A DNA stretch of 64,000 bases. Source: an uncultured Bacteroides sp. (GTDB lineage: Bacteria; Bacteroidota; Bacteroidia; Bacteroidales; GCA-2748055). The stretch spans positions 80 to 64,079 of the forward strand of contig CAZRZY010000001.1 of the NCBI GenBank assembly GCA_964604655.1, in the 5' to 3' direction. Positions 12,646-60,594 of the stretch are shown here, piece by piece; position 1 is the first letter of the stretch; the number at the start of each line of letters is the position of its first letter. The notes under the pieces were generated by a model, which worked only from the letters and a program-made list of their open reading frames with translations, had not been told where the DNA came from and did no database searches. The position numbers and the translations under genes are program-made.

Positions 12646-12657
12646 TATTCCTACCAT

Positions 12658-15857: not shown

Positions 15858-15888
15858 AACTTCCCGCATAATTAAGGAGATGGGTATT

Positions 15889-17600: not shown

Positions 17601-18424
17601 TGATAAACCATCATGGAGATGTAGTCCACTACCTCAGGGGATGGCATGACCTCCCCCGAATGCCCTCTCGCAAGCACATGGAGGCGGTATTCAGGCAGTT
17701 GGGATCCCGCATACTCCATCAGAGTCATGATGGGTCCGTAGCCGCATACTGAAATTCGTTCTTCCCTGACCACCGATTCCACTCCGCGGGGGTCCCTGTC
17801 CAGGATTTTATCCATCACCAGGTCATCTCTCCGGCGTCCTTCCTCAGGGGTGATAAAATGAGAGAAATCGCAGGATGCCAGGACCATTACCTCCCTTTTT
17901 GTTCGAGTCGCCGCTTCGTTAATCCTCCGGGCTACCTTTTGTGCATTTTCATAGGTCTGTTCTCTCATGCATATGGGCACGATGGAAAACTCCTTCCGAA
18001 GGAAGTACTGCATGAACGGTATGATCACCTCTGCAGAATGCTCCCTGACATGGGCCATACTGTCCATGGGAAGATCCATGATGGCAGCCAGTTCCAGATC
18101 GACGGGGACCCTGCCGGCCGAGTTGACCCAAAATTTGGAATCATCGATGGCGATGGGTTCTCCGAATCCGGAATGGTTCGGATGGAGAATGAGGTAGGTA
18201 TCCGGCTGCTGCTCCAGCCCCTGAATAAATTTGAAAAACGGGACCGTCTGATGCCCGGAATATACATGCCCGGCGTGGGGAATCACCCCCCCAAAGACTC
18301 TGGTGGGCTTCATATCCGGAACGGAGTAGCGTTGCTCACGCTCCATCAGTCGGATCTGATCGAAGATCTCAGATTTAGAGGAGGGATAGAACCTTCCTTC
18401 CACTGCTGCATGACGTACATTCAT
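17597..18424 (-). CDS. amrB: MEMO1-like protein (AmmeMemoRadiSam system protein B)
   Basis: AAVEGRFYPSSKSEI, VIPHAGHVYSG and EHSAEVIIPFMQY are Memo-family His-rich site motifs. Confidence 0.85.
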   Translation of the reverse strand: MNVRHAAVEGRFYPSSKSEIFDQIRLMEREQRYSVPDMKPTRVFGGVIPHAGHVYSGHQTVPFFKFIQGLEQQPDTYLILHPNHSGFGEPIAIDDSKFWVNSAGRVPVDLELAAIMDLPMDSMAHVREHSAEVIIPFMQYFLRKEFSIVPICMREQTYENAQKVARRINEAATRTKREVMVLASCDFSHFITPEEGRRRDDLVMDKILDRDPRGVESVVREERISVCGYGPIMTLMEYAGSQLPEYRLHVLARGHSGEVMPSPEVVDYISMMVYQ

Positions 18425-18430
18425 AAGCGG

Positions 18431-19441
18431 TTAATTAACGAAAACACCTTTTATCTTCAGACCGCACTTTTTACAGGTACCATTACTGCCGATTCCGCTG
18501 ACCTCGGACTGGTATAAATTTCTGCTCACAAGCATATTCCCGCACCCGGGACAGAGTGTATGGCTTTCGAGCTGGGGAGTGTTGCCCGGGTAGACATACC
18601 GTATCTTCTCCCTTGCCATTGCCACAAAACGCTCAATAGTTTTCAGCGGTGTAGGCGGATTATTCATCCTGTGCCTCGGAAAATACCGGCTCACGTGCAG
18701 GATAGTATCTGTTCCGCAATGGTCGGAGATCCAGGAGATCATCTCCTTCCATTCTTGATCGTTGTCGTTATATCCGGGAATGATCAGGAAGGTCAGCTCC
18801 AGGTGTGTTCCATTGGACACAATCCGGCTGATAGTATCAAGGACAGGCTGGAGTCGTGATCCCGTGCGCCTCACGTAGAACCGGTTTGAAAAGGCTTTCA
18901 GATCAACGTTGAGTGCGTCCATAAGCGGCAGAAGCATCTCCAGCGGTTCCCGGTTAATGTAGCCATTGGTAACCATTACATTCTTCATACCACGCTCTCT
19001 GACCTGTCTGGCACATTCCAGCATAAACTCATAGAAGATGACCGGTTCATTATAGGTATAGGCCAGACCGATATTGTCTCTGTGAAGCTCCGCTTTCTGA
19101 ACTAAATCGCCAGGATCCCTGAAGGGGCTATTTGCCAGTATTCCCTGACAAACCTGAGAAATCTCGCTGTTCTGACAAAAATCGCACGACATGTTGCAGC
19201 CATAACTGCCGATAGAGAGGATCGATCGACCCGGATAGAAATGATACAGCGGTTTCTTCTCTAACGGATCGGTTGCTACAGCCGACAGGACTCCGAAATT
19301 CTCGGTGACCAGTTTTCCGTCCCTGTTCACCCGGACATGACACTTGCCGTACTGGTCAGTTTTGAGAATACAGTAGTGAGGGCACAATTGGCATTGAACC
19401 TTTGAATCCTCACGCGATCTGAAGAATAAAGCCGGATACAT
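18431..19441 (-). CDS. amrS: AmmeMemoRadiSam system radical SAM enzyme
   Basis: The N-terminal Cys cluster is VQCQLCPHYCILKTDQYGKCHVR. The radical SAM motif CNMSCDFCQN is present, and there is a C-terminal CPGCG...CKKCG. Confidence 0.85.
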   Translation of the reverse strand: MYPALFFRSREDSKVQCQLCPHYCILKTDQYGKCHVRVNRDGKLVTENFGVLSAVATDPLEKKPLYHFYPGRSILSIGSYGCNMSCDFCQNSEISQVCQGILANSPFRDPGDLVQKAELHRDNIGLAYTYNEPVIFYEFMLECARQVRERGMKNVMVTNGYINREPLEMLLPLMDALNVDLKAFSNRFYVRRTGSRLQPVLDTISRIVSNGTHLELTFLIIPGYNDNDQEWKEMISWISDHCGTDTILHVSRYFPRHRMNNPPTPLKTIERFVAMAREKIRYVYPGNTPQLESHTLCPGCGNMLVSRNLYQSEVSGIGSNGTCKKCGLKIKGVFVN

Positions 19442-41642: not shown

Positions 41643-43448
41643 ATGATGATGAACCGTATCTCAGCTGTACTTCTTCTTACATCTTCTTTGCTCTTCCTTT
41701 CGGGATGTGTGAAGGAGGTTTTTGTGGAATGTGAATCTTTCGAAGAACATGGCGGATGGGTGGTCGATCCCCAGTTTGTGGAACAGATGGGCTCCCCCTA
41801 TCTGATGGCCCATGGCATGGGGGAACCAGTGGAAAATGCCCGGACAACCATCGAGATTCCGGCAGGCGGAACCTACCATGTCTGGGCCCGGACAAGAGAC
41901 TGGGCTCCCGGAAGATGGGAGGCACCCGGGCGGTTTCATGTACTCCTGGACGGGGCCGCATTGCCTGAGACTCTCGGCGACCAGATGGGAGGCTGGGGGT
42001 GGAATTATGCCGGTAAGACAAAAGCAATAAAAGGAAGCGCCACATTGGAAGTGGAGGATCTGACGGGATTCAACGGCCGGTGTGATGCCATCTATATCTC
42101 CAACCGGTACCGGACCCCCACTAACGAACCGGGATACCTTCGCGACATGCGCGAAACCCTCACCGGAAAGAGGGAGTTACCCGGGAAGGTCCTGGATTTC
42201 GACCTGGTGGTGGTAGGAGGGGGGATCGCCGGTTGTGCTGCAGCCATTGCTGCGGCCGAAGAAGGAATGGAAGTGGCCCTGGTTCACGACCGGCCCGTCC
42301 TGGGTGGGAACGCCAGCAGCGAGATCCGCGTCCATACCCTTGGCATATACGGGCACTTTGAAAGGATCCTGAAAATGCTCGACACCGAACACTACCCCAA
42401 CGGTTCCCCCGATGCCTTCCTGGACGAGGAGAAAAGGCATAAAAACATCCAACAGTACGACCGGATATCCCTTTTGTTGGAGACCAGGGCTTACCGGGTG
42501 GACACGCTGAACGGGGAGATCACGGCAGTGGATGCGCGGCACACCCGGACCGGTGAAACGATCCGGCTCCGGGCCCCTTACTTTGCTGACTGTACGGGGG
42601 ATGGGTGGATCGGATACTGGGCAGGTGCGGAATACATGTATGGCCGTGAACCAGTGGACCAATACGGAGAGCAGTGGGAGGAGTTCGGCGAGCTTTGGAG
42701 CCCTGATGAGGCGGACGACAAGGTGATGGGCTCTTCGGTACTGTGGCGGACCCGTGAAGCGGATACCATCTCCCCTTTTCCCGAAGTACCTTGGGCCATG
42801 GAGGTGGCCGGAAGCCATGCCGCCAGAAAGGGAACCTGGCACTGGGAGCTGATCAGCGAGGAGTGGAACCAGGCGGAACAGGGGGAACAGATCAGGGACC
42901 ACATGCTGAAAGCGATCTACGGTTCCTTCTACAATGAAAAGCAGAAAACGGGCTCCGACAGCCTGGAGCTGGAATGGGTCTCTTACCTGCTCGGAAAACG
43001 GGAGTCGAGGCGACTGGTGGGAGATTACATCTATACGTTTAACGATGAGAGGGAGTCCCGTACTTTTCCCGATGCAGTGGTCATGGAGGACAGGGCGGTG
43101 GATGTACACTACCGTCAGGATGAGCTGGATGATTCGAAGCCGGGATTTCTGACCGAAGCCATGTTTTACCTCGCCGAACGCTACTACATCCCTTACCGCT
43201 CGCTCTACACCCGTGATATCGGTAACCTGTTTATGGCAGGACGATGCTTCAGTTGCAGCCACGTGGGACTGGGAGGACCCCGGGTGATGCGCACCACGGG
43301 CCAGATGGGAGCAGCGGTGGGGTATGCATCTGCTGTGTGCCACAGGAACGATTGTACGCCCCGCCAACTCTACGAAGACCATCTGGAGGAGTACATGGAG
43401 CTGGTGCGCTCTTCCGATGACCGGAACCGGCAAACGACCCATCCATGA
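41643..43448 (+). CDS. FAD-dependent oxidoreductase with ~170-aa N-terminal extra domain, lipoprotein
   Basis: The lipobox is LFLSGC. The N-terminal domain is rich in W/G (GGWGWNYAG). The FAD motif is FDLVVVGGGIAGCAAAIAAAEEGMEVALVHDRPVLGGNASSE. Confidence 0.8.
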   Translation: MMMNRISAVLLLTSSLLFLSGCVKEVFVECESFEEHGGWVVDPQFVEQMGSPYLMAHGMGEPVENARTTIEIPAGGTYHVWARTRDWAPGRWEAPGRFHVLLDGAALPETLGDQMGGWGWNYAGKTKAIKGSATLEVEDLTGFNGRCDAIYISNRYRTPTNEPGYLRDMRETLTGKRELPGKVLDFDLVVVGGGIAGCAAAIAAAEEGMEVALVHDRPVLGGNASSEIRVHTLGIYGHFERILKMLDTEHYPNGSPDAFLDEEKRHKNIQQYDRISLLLETRAYRVDTLNGEITAVDARHTRTGETIRLRAPYFADCTGDGWIGYWAGAEYMYGREPVDQYGEQWEEFGELWSPDEADDKVMGSSVLWRTREADTISPFPEVPWAMEVAGSHAARKGTWHWELISEEWNQAEQGEQIRDHMLKAIYGSFYNEKQKTGSDSLELEWVSYLLGKRESRRLVGDYIYTFNDERESRTFPDAVVMEDRAVDVHYRQDELDDSKPGFLTEAMFYLAERYYIPYRSLYTRDIGNLFMAGRCFSCSHVGLGGPRVMRTTGQMGAAVGYASAVCHRNDCTPRQLYEDHLEEYMELVRSSDDRNRQTTHP

Positions 43449-45907
43449 GACAGAAACATTGGTTTACCTTCCTGCTCCCCGCCGTCCTCCTGGCATGGCT
43501 CCTGTCAGGTTGCCTGCCTGACGAAAAAGTGATGCTCAGCGGGATCTATCCACACCTGGCATATTACAACCACGAAGGGGAATGCGGTACCGGGGCGGTG
43601 GTACCCTGGGCAGACCGGCTGTGGGTGGTGACCTACGGACCCCATCTGCCACATGGATCCTCCGACAAACTTTACGAAATAACCAGGGATCTGGAGAAGA
43701 TCACCCGGCCGGAGAGCATCGGGGGAACTCCGGCCAACCGGATGATCCACCGCGAGAGTAACCAGCTGTTTATAGGCCCCTACGCCATCAGCGGAGAGGG
43801 GAAGGTGCAGGTGATCCCCTACGACCGGATGCCGGGACGGCATACCGGCAATGCCCGGCATCTGGCCGATCCCGAAGGAAAGATCTATTATGCTACCATG
43901 GAAGAAGGATTTTACGAAGTGGACGTGGCGAGCCTCCGGGTTACCACCCTGGTACCTGACGCCCACCAGCTTCCTGAGGATCCATACGGCAAATTTCTTC
44001 CCGGCGCACACGGCAAGGGATTGTACTCCGGACAGGGCGTACTGGTCTACTCCAATAACGGAGAAGCTTCCCGCGAGGCACGTACCCGGTTCGATGCGGA
44101 ATCGGGGGCGTTGGTGGAATGGAATGGAAGCGATTGGAAATTGATCCGCAGAAACCAGTTTGTGGAAGTAACCGGTCCGGGAGGGATCTATGGGAACTCC
44201 CATCCGGCCACCGATCCCATTTGGGCCACGGGATGGGACCAGAAATCCCTGTTGCTGGGAGTAAGGGATGCGAAAACCAATGACTGGCGATTCTACCGCC
44301 TTCCCAAAGCAAGCCACAGTTACGACGGTGCGCACGGCTGGAATACCGAATGGCCCAGGATCAGGGATGTGGGCACCCCGGGCTCTCCCGACTACCTGAT
44401 GACCATGCATGGGATGTTCTGGCGTTTCCCGGAAAACTGGAACCCCTCGGGCAGCGGGGGGATCAGGCCCCGTTCGGCCTACCTGAAGGTGATCGGTGAT
44501 TTCGCCAGGTGGGGAGACCGGCTCGTAATGGGATGTGACGATTCAGCCCAGCGGGAATTCCTCAATAAACGGAAGGTCAAAGGTTCTATTGAAGGGCCGG
44601 GACAATCCAACTCTAACCTCTGGTTTATGGACCCGGAAATGCCCGGCCTGCTGGGACCTGCCACTGCCGAAGGCGGGGTCTGGTTGAAGGAACGGGTAAC
44701 CGCCGGAGTTCCATCCGAGCCTTTCCTGTTTACCGGGTGGACTCACCGAACCTGTTGGATTCAGCAACATGGTGAACATCCGGTGGAGTTAATCCTCGAG
44801 ACCGACCTGATTGGAGACGATACCTGGACCGAGTTGCAGAGGGTAGTGGTCGCTGGTGGTGAAAGCCTTCAGCTTCCGTTCAGTGAAACGGATCGCGGGG
44901 AGTGGATCCGGGCCATCCCGCAGGATTCTGCAAGGGTGACACTCCATTTCTGCTACACGGACCCCGATCTCAGGGATACTATTCCGGAAGATCTTTTCCG
45001 GGGTATCTCCTTTTCTTCGGATCACGCTTCGATTGGTGGTCTTCTCTATGGTCTGGGTGACGATCAGGAAAAGCTGGGTCTGGCCGTCAGCCGTTTTGAA
45101 GGAGACCAATCCGCACCGGGAGGGTATTATGAACTGGATGAATCACTGCAACTGGTTCGGACAGAGGAACCCGGAAAGGAAGAGTTTATCAGAGAGAAAT
45201 TTGCCATTCCGGAAGGATTGGTCTCCGTAGAGTCCTCGTCGGTTCTGGTGATCGATGACAGCGGCAGAAGATGGAGGCTGCCGCCTGGCGAAACACCACT
45301 GGATCTGCTGACCGAAAGCGGTACCCTCAGAATTTCCCGTGAAGTGGCCACCGAGCGGGATCTGTTCAGCTGCCACGGGACCTTCTATGAACTGCCTGCC
45401 GAAAATGCAGACGGATTCGCCAAGATCCGCCCGGTGGCTTCCCATCCCTTCCGGATTCATGATTATGCCAGTTATCGGGGACTGCTGGTCATGACGGGGA
45501 TCGATCCGGAATATGCCGGGACAAATCCACACGTGATCACCTCTGAGGATAGGAAAGCAGCCGTTTGGGCCGGTGTGATCGACGATCTCTGGAAACTGGG
45601 CAAACCCACCGGCAGGGGCGGACCATGGCACCGGACTCTGGCAGAGGCAGGGGAGCCTTCCGATCCCTACCTGATCGGGTTCTATGACCGGAAACATTTG
45701 ATGATCACCCACGATTCCCCGGGTGCCGTTACCATCGCAGTGGAAATCGATCCTACGGGACATGGTCCCTGGATGAAATACAGGGAGGTGACCCTGGATC
45801 CCGGAGAGACCTTCAATTATCTGTTTCCCGCTCATTTCCAGGCGCGATGGATCCGGTTCCGGAGCCATCAAAGTGCACGGATAACCACGCTGCTGACCTA
45901 CGAATAA
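43445..45907 (+). CDS. Large lipoprotein of unknown function (820 aa)
   Basis: An ATGA start/stop overlap links it to the upstream oxidoreductase gene. The lipobox is WLLSGC. I saw no catalytic motif, and the repetitive beta-rich composition suggests a propeller/sandwich architecture (inference). Confidence 0.6.
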   Translation: MRQKHWFTFLLPAVLLAWLLSGCLPDEKVMLSGIYPHLAYYNHEGECGTGAVVPWADRLWVVTYGPHLPHGSSDKLYEITRDLEKITRPESIGGTPANRMIHRESNQLFIGPYAISGEGKVQVIPYDRMPGRHTGNARHLADPEGKIYYATMEEGFYEVDVASLRVTTLVPDAHQLPEDPYGKFLPGAHGKGLYSGQGVLVYSNNGEASREARTRFDAESGALVEWNGSDWKLIRRNQFVEVTGPGGIYGNSHPATDPIWATGWDQKSLLLGVRDAKTNDWRFYRLPKASHSYDGAHGWNTEWPRIRDVGTPGSPDYLMTMHGMFWRFPENWNPSGSGGIRPRSAYLKVIGDFARWGDRLVMGCDDSAQREFLNKRKVKGSIEGPGQSNSNLWFMDPEMPGLLGPATAEGGVWLKERVTAGVPSEPFLFTGWTHRTCWIQQHGEHPVELILETDLIGDDTWTELQRVVVAGGESLQLPFSETDRGEWIRAIPQDSARVTLHFCYTDPDLRDTIPEDLFRGISFSSDHASIGGLLYGLGDDQEKLGLAVSRFEGDQSAPGGYYELDESLQLVRTEEPGKEEFIREKFAIPEGLVSVESSSVLVIDDSGRRWRLPPGETPLDLLTESGTLRISREVATERDLFSCHGTFYELPAENADGFAKIRPVASHPFRIHDYASYRGLLVMTGIDPEYAGTNPHVITSEDRKAAVWAGVIDDLWKLGKPTGRGGPWHRTLAEAGEPSDPYLIGFYDRKHLMITHDSPGAVTIAVEIDPTGHGPWMKYREVTLDPGETFNYLFPAHFQARWIRFRSHQSARITTLLTYE

Positions 45908-45985
45908 TGAGTATAACAGAGCAATTTAATCGAATATAAATAATCTGACAAGCTATTTTTAGAATCGATTATAATGTGTGCTATA

Positions 45986-47905
45986 ATGAAATTAAATTAT
46001 ATAATACCGGGCTTTAAGTATCGATCTTTTTTCCCTATCCTGGCTCTCATACTCCTAACAGGTTTTACTGCCTGTAACAAGAAAGACCAATTCAGGGCTG
46101 ACTTTCAAATGATTGATCCTGACCGCATCACGGATACTACCGAGAACGTGGGCGTGTTCGGAGGATCCACCCGCATTACCCGGAAACCGGTGGAAGCCGG
46201 TGGAGCCACCTGGAATGTGGAATCAGGAAGGCTTTATCTTGATTTTGAAGAGCTTGGCTATTTCAGCATCACCCCCGAGGTGATTGGTCTGCCCGGATCA
46301 TGGAAAGGACTGGAGACCTTGCATGTAAAGTTGCATTCCGATACCATTGCCACCCTGATCCTGGAGATATACGGGCGCCGCTCCCGGATCAGGGATACAC
46401 TGTCCGTTAAGAAAGGGCGTTCCCGGCATGAAATGGATATTCGTGAAACAGCGTTGCTTGGAGGACTGGATGTGATGCCGGACCGGATACGGATCACATC
46501 AGCAGATCCCTCCCGCGTGCAAATAAGTCATTTGAGGCTTCAGAAGGGGGAGGAGCAGCTCTTTCTGATCGATCGCTGGGGTCAGCGGGCATTATCCCAT
46601 TGGCCGGGTAAAGTGCAATCGAAGGAGCAGTTGATCGATCTCACCGGAGAAACCGCGTTCCTGGATTCTCTGACCTCCATTGACGAGAAGGGATCGCTGG
46701 ATCCCTATGGCGGATATGCCGGCAGGGAGCTGTTATTTGATGCAACGGGCTTTTTCCGGGTGGATAAAAGGGACGGCCGTTGGTGGCTGGTGACCCCCCT
46801 GGGCAATCCGTTCTACAGCCTCGGGGTGAACGGAGTCCGGATCAAATCGTTCAGGAGTACGGCCGATGTTACCCGGATTCAGGGAAGAGAGGAGCTCTTT
46901 GCGGAGGTTCCTGAATTCGAACAATGTCCCCTGTGCTTCATGGAAGATTCCACCTATTTCTCATTCTACAGCTGGAATATCCGGAAGAAATACCCCACCA
47001 TCGAAAAATGGAAGGATCAGACTGAGAGGAGGTTACGGACGACAGGATTCAATACCATCGGGAACTGGAGCGACACCCTTTACTATCTGGAACCGAAAAT
47101 GCCCTATACGTATACCCTGGACAGCCGGAGGAATCCGGAGGTGATGATGTCCAACGGCATGCCGGATGTGTTCCATCCGGGCTGGGAGGAACATCTGTCA
47201 GTTGCATTCTCTATGATCACTGATTTCAGAGTGGATCCCTTTTTGCTGGGATATTTTGTGGACAATGAAATGGGATGGGGTGCCATCAACCGCCCCGATT
47301 CTTCCAGTCACACCTTCCCCGTACTGGAACGCTATGAAACGGAGGAAGAAAAGCGGGCGGTCTATGCCGAACGCTATTTTTCTACCGTCAGACAGGCCAT
47401 ACGGTTACATGATCCCAACCACCTCTACATGGGGTGCCGGTTTACCCGGAACTTCAGACGAATGGCCCCCATTGCAGAGGCTGCGGGAAGGCATGTGGAT
47501 ATTTTGTCCATCAATGTCTATTCGGCTCATCCCATCAAACAGCAGATGGACCAGTGGTACCGGGCAGCCAGAAGACCCATGCTCATCGGGGAACATCACA
47601 TTCCGCCCCGAACTGCCAGACAACTCTGGCCCAGGTATCCCAATTTTCCTCTGCCGGAACGCGATTCGATGCTGTCAAACTATATCTCCACCTGGGCCGG
47701 TTACCCGTATGCTGTAGGAAGCCATTGGTACCAGTATAAGGACCAGGAAGTGGCCGGCAGGGGAGATGGTGGTGAGAACCAGCCGATCGGACTTGTTACC
47801 GTGGCCGACCAGCCCAACTATCCGCTTCTGGAAACCTACCATTGGATCGCCAACCAGCTGCCGGATTGGCTGGGAGTGGGCTATTCGATGATTGCCGGCA
47901 AATAA
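45986..47905 (+). CDS. Putative glycoside hydrolase, clan GH-A-like TIM barrel (family not assignable by eye), lipoprotein
   Basis: The lipobox is LLTGFTAC. GFNTIGNWSD, YFVDNEMGWG (NE acid/base-like) and PMLIGEHHI (candidate nucleophile Glu) follow the GH-A pattern. The start is at ATG 45986. Confidence 0.55.
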   Translation: MKLNYIIPGFKYRSFFPILALILLTGFTACNKKDQFRADFQMIDPDRITDTTENVGVFGGSTRITRKPVEAGGATWNVESGRLYLDFEELGYFSITPEVIGLPGSWKGLETLHVKLHSDTIATLILEIYGRRSRIRDTLSVKKGRSRHEMDIRETALLGGLDVMPDRIRITSADPSRVQISHLRLQKGEEQLFLIDRWGQRALSHWPGKVQSKEQLIDLTGETAFLDSLTSIDEKGSLDPYGGYAGRELLFDATGFFRVDKRDGRWWLVTPLGNPFYSLGVNGVRIKSFRSTADVTRIQGREELFAEVPEFEQCPLCFMEDSTYFSFYSWNIRKKYPTIEKWKDQTERRLRTTGFNTIGNWSDTLYYLEPKMPYTYTLDSRRNPEVMMSNGMPDVFHPGWEEHLSVAFSMITDFRVDPFLLGYFVDNEMGWGAINRPDSSSHTFPVLERYETEEEKRAVYAERYFSTVRQAIRLHDPNHLYMGCRFTRNFRRMAPIAEAAGRHVDILSINVYSAHPIKQQMDQWYRAARRPMLIGEHHIPPRTARQLWPRYPNFPLPERDSMLSNYISTWAGYPYAVGSHWYQYKDQEVAGRGDGGENQPIGLVTVADQPNYPLLETYHWIANQLPDWLGVGYSMIAGK

Positions 47906-47932: not shown

Positions 47933-48783
47933 ATGAGAAATGTGATTGGCGTTACAATAGTTACATTCATATTCATTAGCTGCTCATCACCAATTAATAA
48001 CAACGATCACCTAAAGCCAAATGTTATATATATCATGGTGGATGATATGGGGTATGCCGGATCGCCTGTCTGTGCCCCTTCGCGCAGCACATTGATGACC
48101 GGGATGCATACCGGCCACACGACGGTGCGTGGTAATAAATCACAGATCCCGCTGGATCTTCCCAATCCCGATCGTGTTCCGCTCAGGAATGAGGATTTTA
48201 CGCTGGCGGAGCTGTTCAAAAATGCCGGGTATGTGACCGGTATGACCGGCAAATGGGGACTGGGGGAGCCCGGAACCACCGGCGAATTCAATGCCCAGGG
48301 ATTCGACCAATGGATGGGGTTCCTGAATCAACGGAGAGCCCATAACCACTTTGCCGAATACATCTGTAGATCCGGATCCCAATGATCGCCTGGATGCCAG
48401 GAGCCGTTCCGGAAGGAAGCACCAGTGATTTTCCCTGGTAATTCCCGGATGTTTTACCCACCATGGCCGAGTTCATCGGTGAGCAACCCCCAACAGGGAT
48501 AGACGGGATCAGCGTGCTTCCGGAGATCCTGGGAAATGATATGTTACCCGGGAATCGATTTATGTACTGGGAGTTCCATGAAGGGGACTTTTTCCAGGCA
48601 GTCCGCTGGAAGGACTGGAAAGCGGTCAGAAAAGGCCTGGAAGGCCCCCTGGAACTTTACGACCTTTCTATCGATCCTTCCGAGACCACCGATCGGATCC
48701 TGGATTTTCCTGAGGTGAGAGAAACCATACTTCACTACCTGGATACAGCCAGAACAGAATCAGACTACTGGATCGCCAGATAG
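47933..48783 (+). pseudogene. Decayed sulfatase gene (three lesions)
   Basis: In NVIYIMVDDMGYAGSPVCAPSRSTLMTGMHTGH, about 30 aa normally found between DDMGY and the CxPSR signature are missing. The central ~170 aa are missing with a frame change near 48370-48385. The C-terminal frame IRIPMIAWMPGAVPEGSTSDFPW*FPDVLPTMAEF has an in-frame TAA at 48439-48441. Confidence 0.75.
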
Positions 48784-52194: not shown

Positions 52195-53106
52195 ATGACC
52201 TTCGATGTGGCCAATATTGCAGATATCTTCGCCGATTTGGTGATTACCGGACCGGATAAACCCTCCTTCGGGCAGGTGGAGACACTGGCCGACAGCTATG
52301 AGGTGGAACTGGGGGGCTCTGGCCCTATCTTTGCATCCCAGTATGCCAAACTGGGAGGTAGCATCAGTGTGATTACCGTCGTTGGTAAGGATCGGATGGG
52401 GGACTTCGTAACGGATCGAATGCGGGAACTGGGGATCGACACCCGCTATGTCAGGCAAAGTGAAAACCACAGGACCCCCCTTGGGCTCAATATCTCCGTG
52501 GAAGGGGACCGGTCCATGCTCACGGTGCTCGGAACCCTGCAGGAGATCAATCCCGGCCTGGTCCCCGGAGATATTCTGGACTTTGTTCGTCACTGGCACA
52601 TTTCCGGTTATTTCCTACTCCCGGAACTGTTCGATTTCTGGCCGGGCTTTTTAATGCAAGCCCGGGAAAAAGGCATCACTACCTCTCTGGATACCAACTG
52701 GTCACCGGAAGGAAACTGGGACAGGGTTCAGGAGATTCTTCCCCTGGTCGACCTGTTCCTTCCCAATGAAGAGGAGGCCATGGCCATCACCGGCAGCAGT
52801 GATCCCTCTATGGCAGGAAGGCTCCTCTCCCAAAAGATTCCCATGGTGATCATGAAACGGGGTGCAAAAGGGGCTACCATTTTCAAAGAAAAAGAAGAAA
52901 TACACCTGCCCGTTGAAACCGTAGTCCCGGGCCCCTTAGAGGTGGTGGATACCACCGGAGCCGGGGATAGTTTCGATGCGGGCTTTATTTACGAGTGGCT
53001 GAAAGGAGGTTCCCCTGAAGGCTGCCTGCAGAAAGCCATACGGTGCGGGTCCAGCAATGTGCAGGGTATCGGGGGCATCCGCTCCCAGTATATACCGGAT
53101 CCATAG
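52195..53106 (+). CDS. PfkB-family carbohydrate kinase
   Basis: The C-terminal signature is DTTGAGDSFDAGFIY, with an N-terminal GGSG region. Length is 303 aa. Confidence 0.85.
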   Translation: MTFDVANIADIFADLVITGPDKPSFGQVETLADSYEVELGGSGPIFASQYAKLGGSISVITVVGKDRMGDFVTDRMRELGIDTRYVRQSENHRTPLGLNISVEGDRSMLTVLGTLQEINPGLVPGDILDFVRHWHISGYFLLPELFDFWPGFLMQAREKGITTSLDTNWSPEGNWDRVQEILPLVDLFLPNEEEAMAITGSSDPSMAGRLLSQKIPMVIMKRGAKGATIFKEKEEIHLPVETVVPGPLEVVDTTGAGDSFDAGFIYEWLKGGSPEGCLQKAIRCGSSNVQGIGGIRSQYIPDP

Positions 53107-53133
53107 ATATTGAATCCCTAAATATCAGATTAA

Positions 53134-54219
53134 ATGAAGAACAAAATTGGAGTTGGACTGATCGGTTCTCAGTTCGTCACTACCATCCATGCGGAGGCAC
53201 TCCGGTCAGTAGCCGATGCGGAGGTACTTGCCGTCATGTCCCCCACAGGGGGTCACGCCAGGGATTTTGCCACTAAGAACGAAATCCCCCGCCATTTCAC
53301 AAAGCTGGATGAGATGCTGGCCTTGGATGAGATCGATATGGTCGTTATCGGAGCACCAAACCATGTGCACTGCGAGATTACCGAAAAAGCCGCAAAGGCG
53401 GGTAAAAACATCGTTGTTGAAAAACCTTTCTGTCTGAACCTGGCCGAAGCAGACCGGATGATCGAGTCATGCCGAAGTGCGGGAGTGAAGCTGATGTATG
53501 CCGAAGAGCTCTGTTTTGCCCCCAAATATGTTCGGTTAAAAGAGTTGCTGGATGAGGGTGCCCTGGGAAAGCCCGTGCTGTTTAAGCAATCTGAAAAGCA
53601 CGACGGACCCCATTCCGATCATTTCTGGGATGTGGACCGTTCGGGTGGAGGAGTGACCATGGATATGGGTTGCCATGCCTTTGAGTTCTTCCGGTGGTTG
53701 AACGAACGAAAACCGGTCAAGTCGGTATATGCCCACATGACCACCAGCGTGCATGGTCAGCTGACCAGAGGAGATGATAACGCCGTGATCATTCTTGAGT
53801 TTGAGGATGGGGTGACTGCCATTGCCGAGGAAAGCTGGACCAAACTGGGAGGAATGGACGACCGTGCAGAGATCCACGGTTCGGAAGGAGTGGCATACGC
53901 CGATGTACTCCAGGGGAATTCCATCCAGACATACAGTGCAAAAGGAGTGGGATATGCTGTGGAAAAGGCAGGAAATACGGCGGGCTGGAGCTATACTATG
54001 TATGAGGAGGTTTGGAACTACGGATTTCCCCAGGAGTTCGCTCATTTTGTCGATTGTGTAAAAAATAACCGGCAACCGTTGGTGACCGGAGAGGATGGGA
54101 AAGCGGTGCTGGAGATCATCTTCGCCGCCTATGAATCTGCAGGAACCGGCAAGAAGGTGATGCTGCCGTTCTCTACCGATGCAAAAAAGCCATACGACCT
54201 CTGGAAGAACCGGGAATAA
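53134..54219 (+). CDS. Gfo/Idh/MocA family NAD(P)-dependent oxidoreductase
   Basis: The N-terminal Rossmann fold is IGVGLIGSQFVTTIHAEAL, followed by the VVVEKPFCLNLAEADRM (EKP) motif. There is no signal peptide. Confidence 0.85.
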   Translation: MKNKIGVGLIGSQFVTTIHAEALRSVADAEVLAVMSPTGGHARDFATKNEIPRHFTKLDEMLALDEIDMVVIGAPNHVHCEITEKAAKAGKNIVVEKPFCLNLAEADRMIESCRSAGVKLMYAEELCFAPKYVRLKELLDEGALGKPVLFKQSEKHDGPHSDHFWDVDRSGGGVTMDMGCHAFEFFRWLNERKPVKSVYAHMTTSVHGQLTRGDDNAVIILEFEDGVTAIAEESWTKLGGMDDRAEIHGSEGVAYADVLQGNSIQTYSAKGVGYAVEKAGNTAGWSYTMYEEVWNYGFPQEFAHFVDCVKNNRQPLVTGEDGKAVLEIIFAAYESAGTGKKVMLPFSTDAKKPYDLWKNRE

Positions 54220-54226
54220 GGGGATC

Positions 54227-54931
54227 ATGAGGTTTGAAGCTTTTACCAATTCTGCCGGACTGGACGAAAGTGCGGCGGCACGGGTGGCCGAAGAGGTGGC
54301 CGCGAAACCGAATCTGCTGATGTGCACCGCCACAGGGTCCTCTCCTATGGGCCTTTACAGGCGGCTTGATCATTGGCAACGACAGCAACCCGGATTATTC
54401 GGGGAAATCCGGATCATCAAACTGGATGAATGGCTGGGAATGCCCGACAGCAGTGCAGGAACCTGTGAGCAGTACCTGAAGAAATGGCTGGTGAAACCCC
54501 TGCGCATTACCCCTGACCGCTTTATCTCCTTCTCCTCCGATCCGCCTGTTCCGGTGGAAGAGGCCGGGAGAATCCAGTCCTATCTCATCCGGCATGGACC
54601 CATCGACCTCAGCATCCTGGGGCTGGGAAGGAATGGCCATCTGGGACTCAATGAACCCGGTCCCGCTCTTCAGCCGGATTGTCACGTAGCTACTCTGAGT
54701 CCGGAATCCCGGCAGCACGAAATGGTGACCCATCTGGGAATGGTCCCGGAACGCGGACTGACTCTGGGAATGCGCCATCTCCTGAATTCCAGGCATATCA
54801 TTCTGATTGTTGCCGGCAGCGGAAAGCAAAAAGCATTGAAAACCCTGGAGTCGGGCCGGATTACCACCTTATGCCCCGCCTCCTTTCTGTGGCTTCACCC
54901 CCGGGTAGATTGCCTGATCCTGAAGGATTAG
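54227..54931 (+). CDS. Glucosamine-6-phosphate deaminase / galactosamine-6-phosphate isomerase (NagB/AgaI) family protein
   Basis: The start is at ATG 54227. CTATGSSPMGLY and LGLGRNGHLGLNEPG match the NagB/AgaI/6-phosphogluconolactonase fold signatures. Confidence 0.75.
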   Translation: MRFEAFTNSAGLDESAAARVAEEVAAKPNLLMCTATGSSPMGLYRRLDHWQRQQPGLFGEIRIIKLDEWLGMPDSSAGTCEQYLKKWLVKPLRITPDRFISFSSDPPVPVEEAGRIQSYLIRHGPIDLSILGLGRNGHLGLNEPGPALQPDCHVATLSPESRQHEMVTHLGMVPERGLTLGMRHLLNSRHIILIVAGSGKQKALKTLESGRITTLCPASFLWLHPRVDCLILKD

Positions 54932-54932
54932 G

Positions 54933-55685
54933 TCAAGCCATTATCAGATCCACACCGGCTTCGGTGAAAATTTCCCGGTAATGGGGGGCCAGATCTGTAT
55001 TGGTGGCCAGATGCCGGATGTCTTCCGGGTGGCAGATGGTAGTCAGTGCACTTCTGCCGAACTTGGTGGAATCCGATACCAGGAATACATCTTCTGCCTT
55101 TTCGATGATGAACCGGGAGATCTCCGCCCTGAACAGATCCCGGATCATAAAACCCTTTTCTCTGGTAAATCCGTCCATTCCTATGAAGGCCTTGTCGATA
55201 TGGATCTGTTCAATGCAACTTTTCGTGATATCGCCCACAAGCGTCTCACTATCGTGTTGATAGATCCCGCCCAGAAGTATAATGGTGGCCTGTGGATTCT
55301 TTCTGAACTGCCTGGCTATAAAAACATTGGTAGTGATGATCGTTACCCGCTCGATCCGTGCAAGTTCCCGTGCCAGTAACGCGTTGACCGAGCCCGATTC
55401 GATCAGGACCGTTTCCCCTTCCCGGACCCGGGAAGAGAGTTTCCGGGCGATACGCAGCTTTTTATCATAATGGACCCCTAACCTGTTGTCCAAATCGTCG
55501 GCATCCTTCAGCACCGCACCTCCATGGATGCGCCTCAGGAGGCCTTCACCCTCCAGGTAACGCAGATCCTGACGAATGGTGACTGCCGATACTCCCAGCT
55601 TATGGGAAAGGGAGGCCACCGTGGCCTTGTCATCCTCTCCCAGTATTTTCAGAATCTGTTTCTGCCTGTCATTCAACATCGTCAC
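54933..55685 (-). CDS. DeoR/GlpR(AgaR)-family transcriptional repressor
   Basis: The HTH is LNDRQKQILKILGEDDKATVASLSHKLGVSAVTIRQDLRYLE. It has a C-terminal sugar-phosphate sensor domain. Confidence 0.9.
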   Translation of the reverse strand: MTMLNDRQKQILKILGEDDKATVASLSHKLGVSAVTIRQDLRYLEGEGLLRRIHGGAVLKDADDLDNRLGVHYDKKLRIARKLSSRVREGETVLIESGSVNALLARELARIERVTIITTNVFIARQFRKNPQATIILLGGIYQHDSETLVGDITKSCIEQIHIDKAFIGMDGFTREKGFMIRDLFRAEISRFIIEKAEDVFLVSDSTKFGRSALTTICHPEDIRHLATNTDLAPHYREIFTEAGVDLIMA

Positions 55686-55695
55686 TTATCAGTTT

Positions 55696-56688
55696 CTATT
55701 CAAGAGACAAAGCCGCAGCGCCAATGACTCCCGCATCGCTGGCTATCTCCGACAGCACGATCCGGACCGGATCGAAAATCATCTCCCTGATCAAACTGTA
55801 GAAGGTTTCCCGGATATGGTTCAGATAAAAATCTCCCCAATTGGTCAGTCCACCACCGATCACGATCAGGGGTGGATTCAATACCTGGAAAAGGTTATAA
55901 AGGCCTATTCCCACATAGCGAGCGCTGTCGGCAATCACTGCCCTGGAAAGAGGATCGCCCATATCAAGCCCCTTTTTCAGGGTCTGCCCGTTAATCTTCG
56001 AGAGATCAAAATGTGCGGGGATATGTAATTTGGTTATTACCCCCTCCTCCAGCTTCTTCCGGAAAAGATGGGGAAGGGCCATTCCACAAGCGCAGGCCAT
56101 CAGGCAACCCCGGTTTCCGCAGGTACAGACCAATTCGCTCTGCGGTTCCACAATGGTGTGACCAAATTCTCCGGCGGTTCCGGTCATTCCCCGGTAGAGC
56201 TTCCCCTCCAGAATGATACCCGCACCGATTCCGGTGCTGACCGTGACAAAAATCATATCGTTGAAGCCTCTCCCGGCCCCGAACCTGAACTCCCCATAGG
56301 CTTGTGCGTTGGCATCGTTGTCGAGAATCACAGGAATGTTGAAATGATGCTGCAGCTCACTTCTCAACGGATAATTACGAAATCCTTTCAGGTTGGAGCT
56401 GGTGATCATAATCCCCTCGCGGAACCGGATATGTCCTGCCGATCCCACTCCGATGGCGGGAAGGTCTTTTTCCTGCAACCTGTTCCTGTGAAGGATCTCC
56501 TTCACCTTTCCGGCCACCATTGCGATCACCTCCTCCTCCTTTCGGTCCACGTGGGCACAGGTCTGTATCTTGTCAAGGAGGAAACCGTGCTCATTGATCA
56601 GGCCGATGGCTACTTTGGTCCCTCCGATGTCTACACCGCAGAGTATTTGTTGAGCGTCCTTAACCGATGGTGTGTTCTGTTCGTGCAA
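55696..56688 (-). CDS. ROK-family sugar kinase
   Basis: The ATP-binding motif is CGVDIGGTKVAIG, and the ROK Zn motif region is CTCGNRGCLMACACG. The only ATG (56829) lies deep inside the upstream GRE gene, so I propose a TTG start at 56688. The exact start is uncertain. Confidence 0.75.
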   Translation of the reverse strand: MHEQNTPSVKDAQQILCGVDIGGTKVAIGLINEHGFLLDKIQTCAHVDRKEEEVIAMVAGKVKEILHRNRLQEKDLPAIGVGSAGHIRFREGIMITSSNLKGFRNYPLRSELQHHFNIPVILDNDANAQAYGEFRFGAGRGFNDMIFVTVSTGIGAGIILEGKLYRGMTGTAGEFGHTIVEPQSELVCTCGNRGCLMACACGMALPHLFRKKLEEGVITKLHIPAHFDLSKINGQTLKKGLDMGDPLSRAVIADSARYVGIGLYNLFQVLNPPLIVIGGGLTNWGDFYLNHIRETFYSLIREMIFDPVRIVLSEIASDAGVIGAAALSLE

Positions 56689-59077
56689 TGATATCGTCCT
56701 GAGTATCGGGAGACAAGGTCGTAAAAAAAGCGGAATATCCCGCAATCCGAACCACCAGGTCACGGTAAGCCTCCGGGTTCTTCTGTGCGGCCAGCAGCGT
56801 CTCCCTGGAGACGATATTATACTGAACATGCCAGCCCTTCAGATCAGCAAAGAAAGTACGGATAATGGATATCAGTTTCTCCCTGTCACTTTCCGTGCGA
56901 AGGGCAGAAGGGGAGAGCTTCTGGTTCAGCAGCACACCTCCCATAATCTGGTGGGCAGGAAGTTTAGCTACAGATTTGAAAACAGCGGTCGGTCCAAGAC
57001 AGTCGGTCCCGGAAGAGGGAGAGCTCCCCTCAGCCACCGGCTTGAATGCCTTCCTGCCGTCAGGGGTGGCCGGGACCACCGCCCCACTGGGTACATTGGC
57101 CGAGATGCTGGAAGTTCCAGCATAGTATCGGCATCCGATGGGTCCCCGACCATAGCGGGTGGTATGGTATTTCTCCAGTTGCTTGATAAACTCCATATAG
57201 GCATCCCTGAGCAGCAGGTCTACATAGTCATCGTCGTTGCCATATTTGGGAGCAAAGTTGAGCAGCAACTGCCGGATCTTCTCCCGCTCCACCCCTTCAA
57301 AATCATGCTCTATGGCATCCAGCAATTGATCTTTGGAGATACGGCCCTCCTCAAAAACAAGCTTCTTTATGGCGGCCAGTGCATTCCCCAGATTGGCAAT
57401 CCCCACCTGGAGGCCCGAGATGAAATCATACTTGGAGCCTCCCTCTTTAATGGTCTTTCCGCGGGGGATGCAATTGTCCACAAAGGCGGAACAGAGAATA
57501 TCCGGAACATTCTCTTCCAATGCGGTGTCTGCCGCTGTGTCGATTTCCACCGTTTTCTGGGTATAATAGGTGATCTGGCGCTTCCATGCGCTGAAAAGAT
57601 CCTCATAGGAGCTAAACGTGCGGAAATGGCCGGTCCCTTTATGAAAGGTCTTGCCGGACTGGCCATCCAGTCCGTCGTACATGGCAGCAAGGAAGACCCG
57701 CATAAGGTTCAGGAAACTCATTCCCGTGCATCGGTATCCCCATTTGCCGGGTACTGCGATCTCGATACATCCGATGGCCGAGTAATTGTATGCATCCTGT
57801 TTTTCAACGCCCAAACCGATCAACTCCGGGATGACGATCTCGTCATTATTGAATGACGGCATCCCGAATCCCATTTCGATCACCCTTATACATTCATGCA
57901 TAAATTCCTGACTCATTCCCTGATGAAACCTGACGGAAAGATTGGGCTGGGTAAGACGCATCCTGCCCACTGAACGAAGAATCAGAAAACTCAGTTCATT
58001 CACGGCATCCCTCCCGTCGGGTGTCTGACCGCCGATGGTCACATTCTGGTAAAGGGGTCCGCCTGCCGAAAACCTGGTATGGGACCAGGGGCGTATCTTA
58101 TTGATAGATAATAGTTTAATCCATGTATTCTCCAACAATTCCGAGGCCAGTTCCTCACTGATCGTGCCGTTCAGCCTGTCCGTTACAAAGAAGGGGAGGA
58201 GATACTGGTCCATTCTTCCAAGAGAGACCGAATGGCCATTGCTTTCGATCTGGAGCACCAGCTGAATGAAATAGGTAAGCTGCAATGCCTGGTAAAAATC
58301 CTTCGGGGGCCTGGTGGCGATGCGTTCACAGTTACCGGCAATCCGTTCCAGTTCATGGATGCGGACCGGGTCCTTTTCTTCTTTGCTCAGATAAATGGCC
58401 AGATCCCGGTACCTGAGAATAAAATCCTGAAGGGCCACCAGCGCCAGGGTAACAGCCTGGTAGAAATGATCTTTTCGGACCCCGTCCTGTCGAAACCGTT
58501 CCACCTGCCGGTGGAAATGACCCACCTCCTTCAGGTACCCATCCAGACCGACGGAGAGGATCTTTTCGAACTCCACCGCAATATGGGCATCCCCCGAGGT
58601 CAGGTTACCGGTGGCTTTGATGATGGCAGAATCCTGCAGGTCCCGCAGTTCCTGAGACATCAGGGCGCGGCCCCTGTCCCAGAGCACTTTTCCTTTCCAC
58701 CATTGGGCAATATCCCGCAGCTCCTTCTTGTGCTCGTAGGTGATATAGAAGGCGTCCCCCGGTCTTTTATCCAGTTCGTCCATCTCCGCAGGCAGCCAGT
58801 CCACTGCATATTCGGGAAATATAGGTGCGGCCCTGTGGGAAGAGGACTGATTTCCAACGATCAGCTCACCCTCGTCGATGTAGATGGTCATCTCCCTGAG
58901 CGTTTTCTGCAGCGCCAGGGCACGCTTGATAATGACCGGCCGATCTTCATTGTTCCGGTAGACTTCGGTATAAAACCTGGCTCTTTCGGTACATACCGAC
59001 GGTTTGGCGCTCAGGACCCGTTCTCTCAGACCGGCAATTCTTTCTGTGACCTGCTGTTCCTTCATTGTGCTGATCAT
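56660..59077 (-). CDS. Glycyl radical enzyme, PFL2/glycerol-dehydratase (1,2-eliminase) clade, substrate unknown
   Basis: The 805-aa protein has the C-terminal glycyl radical motif VVRIAGYSAFFTTL. The thiyl loop is AIGCIEIAVPG (Cys-x-Glu, as in the dehydratase/lyase GREs, not the Cys-Cys of pyruvate formate-lyase). Confidence 0.9.
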   Translation of the reverse strand: MISTMKEQQVTERIAGLRERVLSAKPSVCTERARFYTEVYRNNEDRPVIIKRALALQKTLREMTIYIDEGELIVGNQSSSHRAAPIFPEYAVDWLPAEMDELDKRPGDAFYITYEHKKELRDIAQWWKGKVLWDRGRALMSQELRDLQDSAIIKATGNLTSGDAHIAVEFEKILSVGLDGYLKEVGHFHRQVERFRQDGVRKDHFYQAVTLALVALQDFILRYRDLAIYLSKEEKDPVRIHELERIAGNCERIATRPPKDFYQALQLTYFIQLVLQIESNGHSVSLGRMDQYLLPFFVTDRLNGTISEELASELLENTWIKLLSINKIRPWSHTRFSAGGPLYQNVTIGGQTPDGRDAVNELSFLILRSVGRMRLTQPNLSVRFHQGMSQEFMHECIRVIEMGFGMPSFNNDEIVIPELIGLGVEKQDAYNYSAIGCIEIAVPGKWGYRCTGMSFLNLMRVFLAAMYDGLDGQSGKTFHKGTGHFRTFSSYEDLFSAWKRQITYYTQKTVEIDTAADTALEENVPDILCSAFVDNCIPRGKTIKEGGSKYDFISGLQVGIANLGNALAAIKKLVFEEGRISKDQLLDAIEHDFEGVEREKIRQLLLNFAPKYGNDDDYVDLLLRDAYMEFIKQLEKYHTTRYGRGPIGCRYYAGTSSISANVPSGAVVPATPDGRKAFKPVAEGSSPSSGTDCLGPTAVFKSVAKLPAHQIMGGVLLNQKLSPSALRTESDREKLISIIRTFFADLKGWHVQYNIVSRETLLAAQKNPEAYRDLVVRIAGYSAFFTTLSPDTQDDIIARTEHTIG

Positions 59078-59989
59078 TTATCCTCCAATTTTAGTGCGGT
59101 AACCCAATGATTCCGCCATTTCGGTGAAGGGATTCAGCTCCTCGTAGGTAACCTGCTTTCTTTCCGGATGGGGATAGGCTCTCCCCAGCATACGATATTT
59201 TTCTACCCCCAGGGTATGATAGGGAAGAAAGTGTATGACACTGATCCCGTCCAGGGAGGACACGAACCGGAGGATCTGGCTCATATCCTCCATGGAATTA
59301 TTGAACCCGGGGATAACCGGTATCCGTATGGTGACAGGAGCTCCCGTAAAGGTCAGTCGCCGCAGGTTCTCCATGACCAGCCTGGCATCTCCTCCGGTGT
59401 ATTGCCTGAGCCTGAACGGATCCACATGTTTCAGATCGGCTAGAAACAGATCCGCAAGACCCAGACATGTGCGGATCTTGCCCCATTCCACATGCAGGGA
59501 GGTTTCAATGGCTACGTGTATCCTCCTAGCTCTTAATTGTTTGAGCAAAGAAAGCAGTTCAGTTCCCTGTGCAAGAGGTTCACCGCCCGTCAGGGTCACT
59601 CCTCCATCATTCCCGTAAAAAGCCACATCTTTGTCGATCTCCTGTAAGATGTTCCGGCAATCCATCGATTCACCACAGAGGGTCAGCGCCCTGGACGCAC
59701 AAATATCCTTTAGAGCCAATGGATCACCTACAAGATCGCGATTGATCTTCACACCTCCTTCACACTCCAGATGGATCGCTTCAGGGGCCACCACCATGCA
59801 ATCGCCAAAACGCTTACACAAACGGGAATCATACATCAGATCATACCCAAAACTCTGGCTTTCCGGATTGCAGCACCAGCTGCATCGCAATGGGCATCCC
59901 TTGAAAAAGACCAGGGTCCGCACACCTTCGCCATCATGGGTAGAATATCGTTGAATATGGAAGATCATCCGGTTCCTGCAAGTTTTCAA
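59078..59989 (-). CDS. Glycyl radical enzyme activating enzyme (radical SAM)
   Basis: The CPLRCSWCCNPES CX3CX2C motif follows GEGVRTLVFFKGC. There is an extra Cys-rich ferredoxin-like insert. It directly abuts the GRE start codon. Confidence 0.9.
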   Translation of the reverse strand: MKTCRNRMIFHIQRYSTHDGEGVRTLVFFKGCPLRCSWCCNPESQSFGYDLMYDSRLCKRFGDCMVVAPEAIHLECEGGVKINRDLVGDPLALKDICASRALTLCGESMDCRNILQEIDKDVAFYGNDGGVTLTGGEPLAQGTELLSLLKQLRARRIHVAIETSLHVEWGKIRTCLGLADLFLADLKHVDPFRLRQYTGGDARLVMENLRRLTFTGAPVTIRIPVIPGFNNSMEDMSQILRFVSSLDGISVIHFLPYHTLGVEKYRMLGRAYPHPERKQVTYEELNPFTEMAESLGYRTKIGG

Positions 59990-60213
59990 TGTAAAGATAA
60001 TAAACTTTCATGTGAAATCAATATTGCCTTCGTTAAGAATTAGTAATCATATTTCCGGGCTTATTCCTCTAAGGAAGGCCGGATGCCGTGCAGGTTCAGG
60101 TGAAAGAAGAAGACCTGGAGCGTTCCATACAGCACCTGTTCAAAACGGTTCTGCAGGAATCGAATATTCCCGTACGCATATTCCCTCGGTAGGTGTGATT
60201 TTTCACAGGACAG

Positions 60214-60594
60214 CTACACAGTCATCTCCAGCCAGCTGAATAATTCCCTGGAGCGCTGCAGGTACTCCTTTGCCTGATCGGCAGTGGGCTGCTCCAGACC
60301 ATGATCGGGGTGCCTGATCTCCAGCCTTGATTCCATCAGCACCTCCAGCAGTTCCATATCCTCCTCATTGACCTTGATATTGGCCATTTTCATAAGCAAT
60401 TTCGGGTCATCCTGCCGGGGAGGATAATCCCTGGTATTCCTTATCACATGAGCATTCAGAATCTTTTCGATGGCCAAATAGCAGAAAAAAAGCCCCTCAA
60501 CCGGCCGGGCCTCATCAATTAGAAGTGCTCCGGTCACCAGGTCCGACCTGCCTGACCGGATCCAGCTGATAATGTTTATCTCAAGGTCTTTCAC
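60214..60594 (-). CDS. HEPN domain protein (no adjacent nucleotidyltransferase partner)
   Basis: The 126-aa helical protein has LFFCYLAIEKILNAHVI and an R-x4-H motif in RLEIRHPDH. This pattern is typical of small Bacteroidetes HEPN proteins. Confidence 0.6.
   Translation of the reverse strand: MKDLEINIISWIRSGRSDLVTGALLIDEARPVEGLFFCYLAIEKILNAHVIRNTRDYPPRQDDPKLLMKMANIKVNEEDMELLEVLMESRLEIRHPDHGLEQPTADQAKEYLQRSRELFSWLEMTV

Follow-up and report, generated by a model that had tools for sequence, protein, structure and literature searches.

In a 64-kb window of contig CAZRZY010000001.1 from an uncultured Bacteroides sp. (the window being the whole stretch of 64,000 nucleotides that was analysed), a glycyl radical enzyme (GRE) is encoded together with its radical-SAM activase, a ROK-family sugar kinase and a DeoR-family regulator. 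The GRE is probably of the YbiW type, with a predicted activity as C-O lyase/isomerase of 1,5-anhydroglucitol-6-phosphate (AG6P). We consider it likely that this minus-strand cassette is a self-contained, repressor-controlled and kinase-coupled Bacteroidota branch of the YbiW/YbiY route of anhydroglycolysis, in which the ROK kinase would make AG6P, the GRE would open its ring and the DeoR protein would control the operon. The genes and sites concerned are listed here; open reading frame is abbreviated as ORF.

59078-59989, minus strand: GRE activase, radical SAM, YbiY type by similarity (TIGR02494, 312 bits)
56660-59077, minus strand: GRE, 805 aa, probable YbiW type (PFL-like 652 bits, Gly_radical 112 bits)
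57722-57772, minus strand: Cys loop GCIE (Cys437, Glu439) and WGYRCTG (Arg449-Gly452), from translation and alignment
56732-56749, minus strand: glycyl radical loop RIAGYS, residues 777-782 with Gly780, from translation
55696-56829, minus strand: ORF of the ROK-family sugar kinase (Pfam ROK, 223 bits); 55696-56688 if started at TTG 56688, ~330 aa
56098-56127, minus strand: zinc motif CTCGNRGCLM of the ROK kinase, from translation
54933-55685, minus strand: DeoR-family transcriptional regulator (HTH_DeoR and DeoRC domains), last gene of the cassette
60006-60017, no strand assigned: candidate DeoR operator TTTCATGTGAAA, a palindrome 17 nt upstream of the activase ORF
60094-60105, no strand assigned: second site with an imperfect match to the palindrome, GTTCAGGTGAAA, same intergenic region

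An earlier description of this DNA, made from the letters alone and called here the sequence-only reading, had presented the locus as seven convergent genes, four on the minus and three on the plus strand, built around a GRE of unknown substrate. All seven ORFs were confirmed at the positions that it gave, with Pfam or NCBIfam backing each label, and gene order and junctions were verified on the sequence. The activase stop directly abuts the ATG of the GRE (0 nt), the GRE and ROK genes overlap, ROK and DeoR are spaced by 10 nt, and the stop codons of DeoR and of the converging AgaI-like gene are separated by 1 nt. For the activase, ATG 59968 is the most likely start. The start of the ROK gene lies inside the GRE coding region, at TTG 56688 or ATG 56829, because the stretch from the GRE stop to the DIGGT motif of the kinase contains no ATG, GTG or TTG. 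With TTG 56688 the overlap amounts to 29 nt, and an identical overlap is found in the closest species representative (locus L002); in most other loci the ROK match starts ~25 nt past the end of the GRE match.

The glycyl radical enzyme resembles YbiW

In 2024 two E. coli GREs, YbiW and PflD, were shown to be C-O lyases that open a sugar ring, or "GRE isomerases" (PMC13450708 section 5.7; PMC12441222 section 5.1). YbiW acts on AG6P and PflD on 1,5-anhydromannitol-6-phosphate (AM6P), and their common product 1-deoxyfructose-6-phosphate is cleaved by FsaA/FsaB; the anhydrohexitol substrates are phosphorylated in E. coli by the phosphotransferase system (PTS) (PMC13450708, PMC12441222). The pathway is known as anhydroglycolysis; the YbiW study is that of Ma et al. 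(JACS 2024, doi 10.1021/jacs.4c07718), cited here through PMC13450708 and PMC12441222. In YbiW, Cys441 is the thiyl cysteine and Glu443 the base for the C2 hydroxyl, and the reaction is an isomerising, ring-opening C-O cleavage (PMC13450708).

Among solved structures, the window GRE matches best an Enterobacter homologue (6xs4, 1020 bits) and YbiW (8id7/8yjn, 1010 bits), followed at lower scores by glycerol dehydratase (607 bits) and PflD (501 bits). When YbiW and PflD were taken from the E. coli K-12 record, the identity to YbiW was 57.2% over 803 residues, compared with 38% to PflD and 39% to the B12-independent glycerol dehydratase of C. butyricum (1r8w/1r9d). The protein falls in the TIGR01774 subfamily and stays far under the cut-offs of all equivalog models, including the PflD model NF007437 (593 bits against a cut-off of 1109). 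The motifs RIAGYS and GCIE (residues 436-439, nt 57761-57772), on which the sequence-only reading had relied, were verified by translation. Cys437 and Glu439 align to Cys441 and Glu443 of YbiW in an alignment that reproduces the published YbiW numbering, and the glycine of RIAGYS aligns to Gly763 of glycerol dehydratase and Gly786 of YbiW. The GRE belongs to the Cys-x-Glu eliminase/lyase branch and not to pyruvate formate-lyase, as had been proposed.

The pocket was compared through those residues of glycerol dehydratase which we take to form it, namely His164, His281, Ser282, Tyr339, Cys433, Glu435, Asp447, Tyr640 and Gly763; their residue types were all confirmed in the 1r8w sequence. The mapped positions and a YbiW-specific insertion give a signature of 13 positions. 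At all 13 of these pocket-homologous positions the window GRE is identical to YbiW, and they are invariant in 77 relatives, whereas PflD departs at 8 and glycerol dehydratase at 6. The insertion is the RCTG of the WGYRCTG motif, which stands in place of His446-Asp447 of glycerol dehydratase and is likewise invariant in the 77 relatives. PflD belongs to the same GRE isomerase class and yields the same product; in contrast to the window GRE it carries Ser for His282, Gly for Tyr343 and Tyr for Ser656 and has no RCTG insertion. Over the whole protein, 267 columns are invariant in the clade, of which YbiW shares 243 (91%), PflD 147 and glycerol dehydratase 163.

In a search of 1.84 billion representatives at 50% identity, the fall is steep past the two closest (55% and 50% identity). 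When the full-length sequences of the 53 best matches were compared, the signature HHSYCERCTGSIG was intact in just these two, and all those at 46% identity or less were without part of it. The nearest one, which has the full signature, is 53% identical to E. coli YbiW.

The activase agrees with this assignment. Over 273 aa it shares 45% identity with E. coli YbiY, its CPLRCSWC motif is read at nt 59873-59896 by translation, and three more conserved cysteines align with YbiY. As in E. coli, the activase gene stands immediately upstream of the GRE gene.

The description of the substrate as unknown is superseded by these results, because the GRE clusters with the characterised YbiW (57%, 1010 against 607 bits) and shares its pocket-homologous residues by sequence. 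Action on a phosphosugar, which had also been suggested, is upheld by the homology to YbiW, and anhydro-sugars, one of several candidates listed at the time, are now the best-supported substrate class. The proposed chemistry, a radical dehydration or deamination, did not hold, since YbiW performs an isomerising ring-opening C-O cleavage with no net dehydration or deamination (PMC13450708).

A rival reading takes the GRE for a dehydratase of glycerol or 1,2-propanediol that works without B12, or for another eliminase of small molecules (choline, hydroxyproline or isethionate); the TIGR01774 subfamily and the GCxE loop speak for it. Of the glycerol dehydratase residues, His164, His281, Ser282, Tyr339, Cys433, Glu435 and Gly763 are conserved, the first four as His165, His282, Ser283 and Tyr343. 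However, Asp447 and Tyr640 are not kept, being replaced by Gly452 (with the Arg-Cys-Thr insertion) and Ser656, the equivalog models are all far from their cut-offs, and glycerol dehydratase performs the net dehydration of a small diol and not the ring opening of a sugar phosphate. The neighbourhood also speaks against such an enzyme: homologues of microcompartment shell proteins (EutM/K/L/N/S), of the acylating aldehyde dehydrogenase EutE and of the Fe-alcohol dehydrogenase EutG were found neither in the window nor in the 80 related loci described below, and the steady partner of the GRE is a sugar kinase. The earlier argument against a diol or choline enzyme of the microcompartment type therefore stands, and we regard an eliminase of this kind as hardly credible.

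A four-gene cassette is conserved in environmental Bacteroidota

A scan with one genome per species gave 80 loci with a GRE 68-85% identical to that of the window, 81 loci with the window itself. All ORFs were clustered across these 81 loci, where some absences are due to contig ends. The activase is present in 79 of the 81; ROK follows directly downstream of the GRE in 75 and DeoR directly after ROK in 53. Order and strand of activase-GRE-ROK(-DeoR) are kept in about 80 species, and beyond these genes no other is broadly conserved. The co-conserved unit is thus four genes and not seven.

The host genomes are nearly all Bacteroidota metagenome assemblies (Bacteroidales, Draconibacterium, Mariniphaga, Prolixibacteraceae), including as closest species representative L002, with an 85% identical GRE. 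L015 is the isolate Maribellus maritimus 5E3, and a few loci come from Firmicutes and Candidatus Vecturithrix. The Bacteroidota that carry the cassette live in sediment, fen and digester rather than in the gut.

Some loci differ in their surroundings. L076, a relative from Firmicutes, carries a divergent ABC transporter of the monosaccharide type, as would suit a free sugar that is taken up and then phosphorylated by a kinase. In L080 (Candidatus Vecturithrix, 12512-18622) GRE and ROK are set apart by genes for a GH4 glycosidase, an oligosaccharide-type ABC transporter and a DUF4432 protein, which suggests that the anhydro-sugar is released there from a glycoside. One subclade of 15 loci (L053-L078) has genes of a glycogen type at 7-10 kb on the upstream side of the activase. 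They encode a starch-synthase-like transferase (GT4/GT5), a GH57 enzyme and a glycogen debranching enzyme (GDE_N/GDE_C). A connection of 1,5-anhydroglucitol with glycogen breakdown is reported for E. coli, but the vicinity of these genes to the cassette may be plain synteny.

A methionine ends the zinc motif of the ROK kinase

ROK is the sole significant Pfam domain of the kinase, which has no DNA-binding or helix-turn-helix (HTH) domain. Its nearest solved ROK structures are the glucokinases 3vgk (S. griseus GlkA) and 2qm1 (E. faecalis). Like these enzymes and NagK, which have ~320 aa and no HTH, it keeps the family motifs, with GVDIGGT for DxGGT, DNDAN for NDxN with the catalytic Asp, GEFGH for ExGH and CTCGNRGC with the three zinc cysteines.

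The difference lies at the end of the zinc motif. The ROK consensus reads CxCGxxGCx(E/D) (PMC5458393), and the acid at the end of the zinc motif is present in all reference kinases compared, i.e., three glucokinases, the human ManNAc kinase and three NagKs. The position is Met, by contrast, in every one of the 75 ROKs linked to a GRE, that of the window included (Met197, counted from TTG 56688). In P. shigelloides NagK, Asp187 engages the 1'-OH of the sugar (PMC10031466). Asp187 occupies the position at the end of the zinc motif and corresponds to Glu186 of E. coli NagK, the P. shigelloides protein having a one-residue insertion before the motif. A hydrophobic residue such as Met at the position that contacts the 1-OH would be expected for a sugar without an anomeric hydroxyl and thus fits a 1,5-anhydrohexitol. 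The kinase is therefore a predicted 1,5-anhydrohexitol 6-kinase, and what the Met suggests stands independently of the GRE comparison.

A palindrome upstream of the activase accompanies the DeoR gene

Counts of k-mers over the 260 nt that precede the activase brought out a palindrome, TTTCA-N2-TGAAA, often as CTTTCATATGAAAG. With up to one mismatch allowed, it occurs in 41 of 49 loci with DeoR compared with 3 of 25 loci without, on a background of 0.05 per 260 nt, and its median position is 60 nt ahead of the conserved IQR codons. The whole 64-kb window contains two matches only, both within the 224 nt that lie ahead of the activase gene. The site at 60006-60017 is the only exact match, and the one at 60094-60105 was also seen as its repeat. 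This evidence makes the palindrome a good candidate for the operator of DeoR.

The gene that immediately precedes the activase on its strand (60214-60594, minus strand, 126 aa) has the same position in L002 and L044. As it encodes a HEPN-domain protein, it was rejected as a pathway enzyme.

The proposed pathway and its alternatives

In the proposed pathway, 1,5-anhydro-D-glucitol would enter the cell by an unlinked transporter and would be phosphorylated at C6 by the ROK kinase, giving AG6P in place of the E. coli PTS. The radical-SAM activase, judging from its family, would place the radical on Gly780. If the mechanism of YbiW can be transferred by homology, the radical would move to Cys437, which would take a hydrogen from C2 of AG6P; Glu439 would deprotonate the C2 hydroxyl, the C1-O5 ring bond would break and Cys437 would give the hydrogen back, yielding 1-deoxyfructose-6-phosphate. 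An unlinked Fsa/transaldolase-type aldolase would then cleave this product to glyceraldehyde-3-phosphate and hydroxyacetone. The DeoR protein probably represses the operon via TTTCA-N2-TGAAA and is probably released by a sugar phosphate.

Compared with the E. coli systems, the cassette is a member of a known pathway and differs by a kinase for the PTS, by a repressor with a candidate operator and by the lack of a linked aldolase. In E. coli, where AG6P comes from the PTS, fsaA (aldolase) and ybiV (sugar phosphatase) adjoin ybiW, and pflD sits among frw PTS genes, fsaB and gldA. In the window, by contrast, ROK and DeoR follow the GRE, no aldolase, phosphatase or PTS is linked, and the hosts are environmental Bacteroidota.

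Several points weigh against this pathway. Homologues of FsaA/FsaB, GldA, YbiV, the PTS (FrwC) or a transporter were found neither in the window nor within 10 kb of the GRE in the 80 loci; the sole match for FsaA/FsaB/GldA/YbiV/FrwC in the window, the 80 GRE loci and the 80 loci collected with the Gfo protein (see below) is an unrelated Fsa-like gene in L115. The kinase reaches 215.6 bits with the NCBIfam glucokinase model, compared with a cut-off of 260.35. A scan for sigma-70 promoters and terminators was no richer than shuffles, the scan being one that does not model Bacteroidota promoters. In the GRE, the 13 pocket positions derive from homology to glycerol dehydratase and not from coordinates of YbiW with AG6P. 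Furthermore, Ile440, the residue after the catalytic Glu, takes the place of Thr444 of YbiW, and a few nearby positions also differ.

The exchange at Ile440 also speaks for an alternative, the same YbiW-like ring opening on another substrate. This could be a different hexitol phosphate of the 1,5-anhydro or 1-deoxy kind, or an anhydro-sugar set free from a glycoside, perhaps of more relevance in anoxic sediments than 1,5-anhydroglucitol. An identity of 57% to YbiW is short of near-identity, the hosts are Bacteroidota of sediment, fen and digester and not gut bacteria, and the GH4, DUF4432 and oligosaccharide-type transporter genes of L080 hint at a glycosidic precursor. In the kinase, the exchange of Glu for Met speaks for a missing or altered 1-OH only and not for the gluco configuration. 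However, the pocket-homologous positions that agree with YbiW (13 of 13) include the ones that distinguish YbiW from PflD, its paralogue specific for the C2 epimer, and 91% of the clade-invariant columns are common to YbiW. We therefore rate another substrate as unlikely, though as the most serious competitor of AG6P.

For a large and so far unnamed set of environmental Bacteroidota proteins, annotated as "glycyl radical protein" or "formate C-acetyltransferase", the cassette supplies a likely function. It also suggests that the anhydro-sugar route of gut Enterobacteria extends beyond the gut, there in a form that does without a phosphotransferase. Two cheap markers are available for it, the Met for Glu in the partner kinase and the 12-bp palindrome that tracks the repressor gene. 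A bolder proposal, which we put forward tentatively and regard as rather doubtful, is that the cassette represents a previously undescribed, PTS-independent entry into anhydroglycolysis, with the ROK kinase as a new specificity class marked by the Glu-to-Met exchange and with a DeoR regulon of its own defined by TTTCA-N2-TGAAA. If this were true, the spread of the cassette through sediment and digester Bacteroidota would imply that anoxic environments offer a real carbon source in 1,5-anhydroglucitol or in anhydrofructose, derived from the starch of algae or the glycogen of bacteria.

The converging plus-strand genes are an independent module

Three genes on the plus strand converge on the cassette.

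52195-53106, plus strand: PfkB-family sugar kinase (Pfam PfkB, 146 bits), first gene of the adjacent three-gene module
53134-54219, plus strand: Gfo/Idh/MocA NAD(P) sugar oxidoreductase (Pfam)
54179-54931, plus strand: ORF of the AgaI/NagB-like sugar-6-phosphate deaminase/isomerase (NF007291, 2bkv), likely 54227-54931

For the PfkB protein no NCBIfam equivalog model was at or above its cut-off. The AgaI-like protein most likely starts at ATG 54227, which gives 234 aa and matches its homologues; it scores 266.9 bits with NF007291, just under the cut-off of 271, and its best PDB match is B. subtilis NagB (2bkv, 114 bits). Unlike E. coli AgaI and NagB, its usual partner is a Gfo/Idh/MocA protein and not aga or nag genes.

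The sequence-only reading had joined all seven genes into one pathway, with a radical dehydration or deamination by the GRE on an amino or phospho sugar linked to the PfkB, Gfo and AgaI-like proteins. Tight packing speaks for such a unit, and so does a layout shared by four contigs, those of the window, of L002, of L044 and of L084 (the last one metagenomic); in L047 the Gfo gene alone adjoins the cassette. Against it, neighbourhood conservation covers activase-GRE-ROK-DeoR only, and the trio is missing from 76 of the 80 cassette loci of the genome scan. In a neighbour-joining tree of the GRE the four trio-bearing loci group in one small branch, hence the adjacency of trio and cassette is explained by descent. 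None of the four has the palindrome upstream of PfkB, and YbiW-type chemistry is an isomerisation and not a deamination.

The metagenomes point in the same direction. A scan with the Gfo protein gave >560 relatives from soil, marine and sediment samples, of which 80 (L083-L162, 69-81% identical) were kept. In these loci an AgaI-like gene stands beside Gfo in 52, PfkB in 12 and a GRE in one (L084). Elsewhere the Gfo/AgaI-like pair adjoins a GMC oxidoreductase, gluconate-2-dehydrogenase subunit 3, a protein with a 3-keto-disaccharide hydrolase domain, a sugar transporter or an unrelated ROK. Because the adjacency is limited to one lineage, the palindrome is lacking and the pair is widespread without a GRE, the trio is an independent module, separate from the cassette, and the convergent packing with its 1-nt gap is no evidence for a shared pathway. 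The trio would serve another sugar, possibly an amino or keto sugar. A single seven-gene pathway appears quite improbable to us.

For the Gfo protein, 1,5-anhydrofructose reductase was considered and rejected as a confident assignment, as 1,5-anhydro-D-fructose reductase (2glx, 99.6 bits) is just its fourth PDB match and its usual neighbours are unrelated to GREs. Given this weak likeness, a feeder role from anhydrofructose to anhydroglucitol is at most conceivable. If the PTS-independent entry proposed above were real, the Gfo, PfkB and AgaI-like genes might extend the pathway in the lineage of the window to 1,5-anhydrofructose or an amino analogue. The Gfo/AgaI-like pair resembles a widespread two-gene module, in which Gfo is unusually conserved.

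Other features of the window

A link of the locus to the neighbouring glycan island had also been supposed; for the upstream island of sulfatase, fucosidase and GH2 genes none was found. Inside the sulfatase/fucosidase/FAD-oxidoreductase island, two ORFs on the plus strand (43445-45907, 820 aa, and 45974-47905, 643 aa) have no Pfam match. They are followed by a 150-aa ORF (47933-48385, plus strand), which carries only the N-terminal part of a sulfatase domain, and a 106-aa ORF (48463-48783, plus strand), which has no domain match; together these two have the appearance of a disrupted sulfatase gene or of a fault in the assembly. Further away, an AMMECR1 - Memo-like - radical-SAM triplet, which is a conserved three-gene set, is encoded at 17037-19441 on the minus strand.

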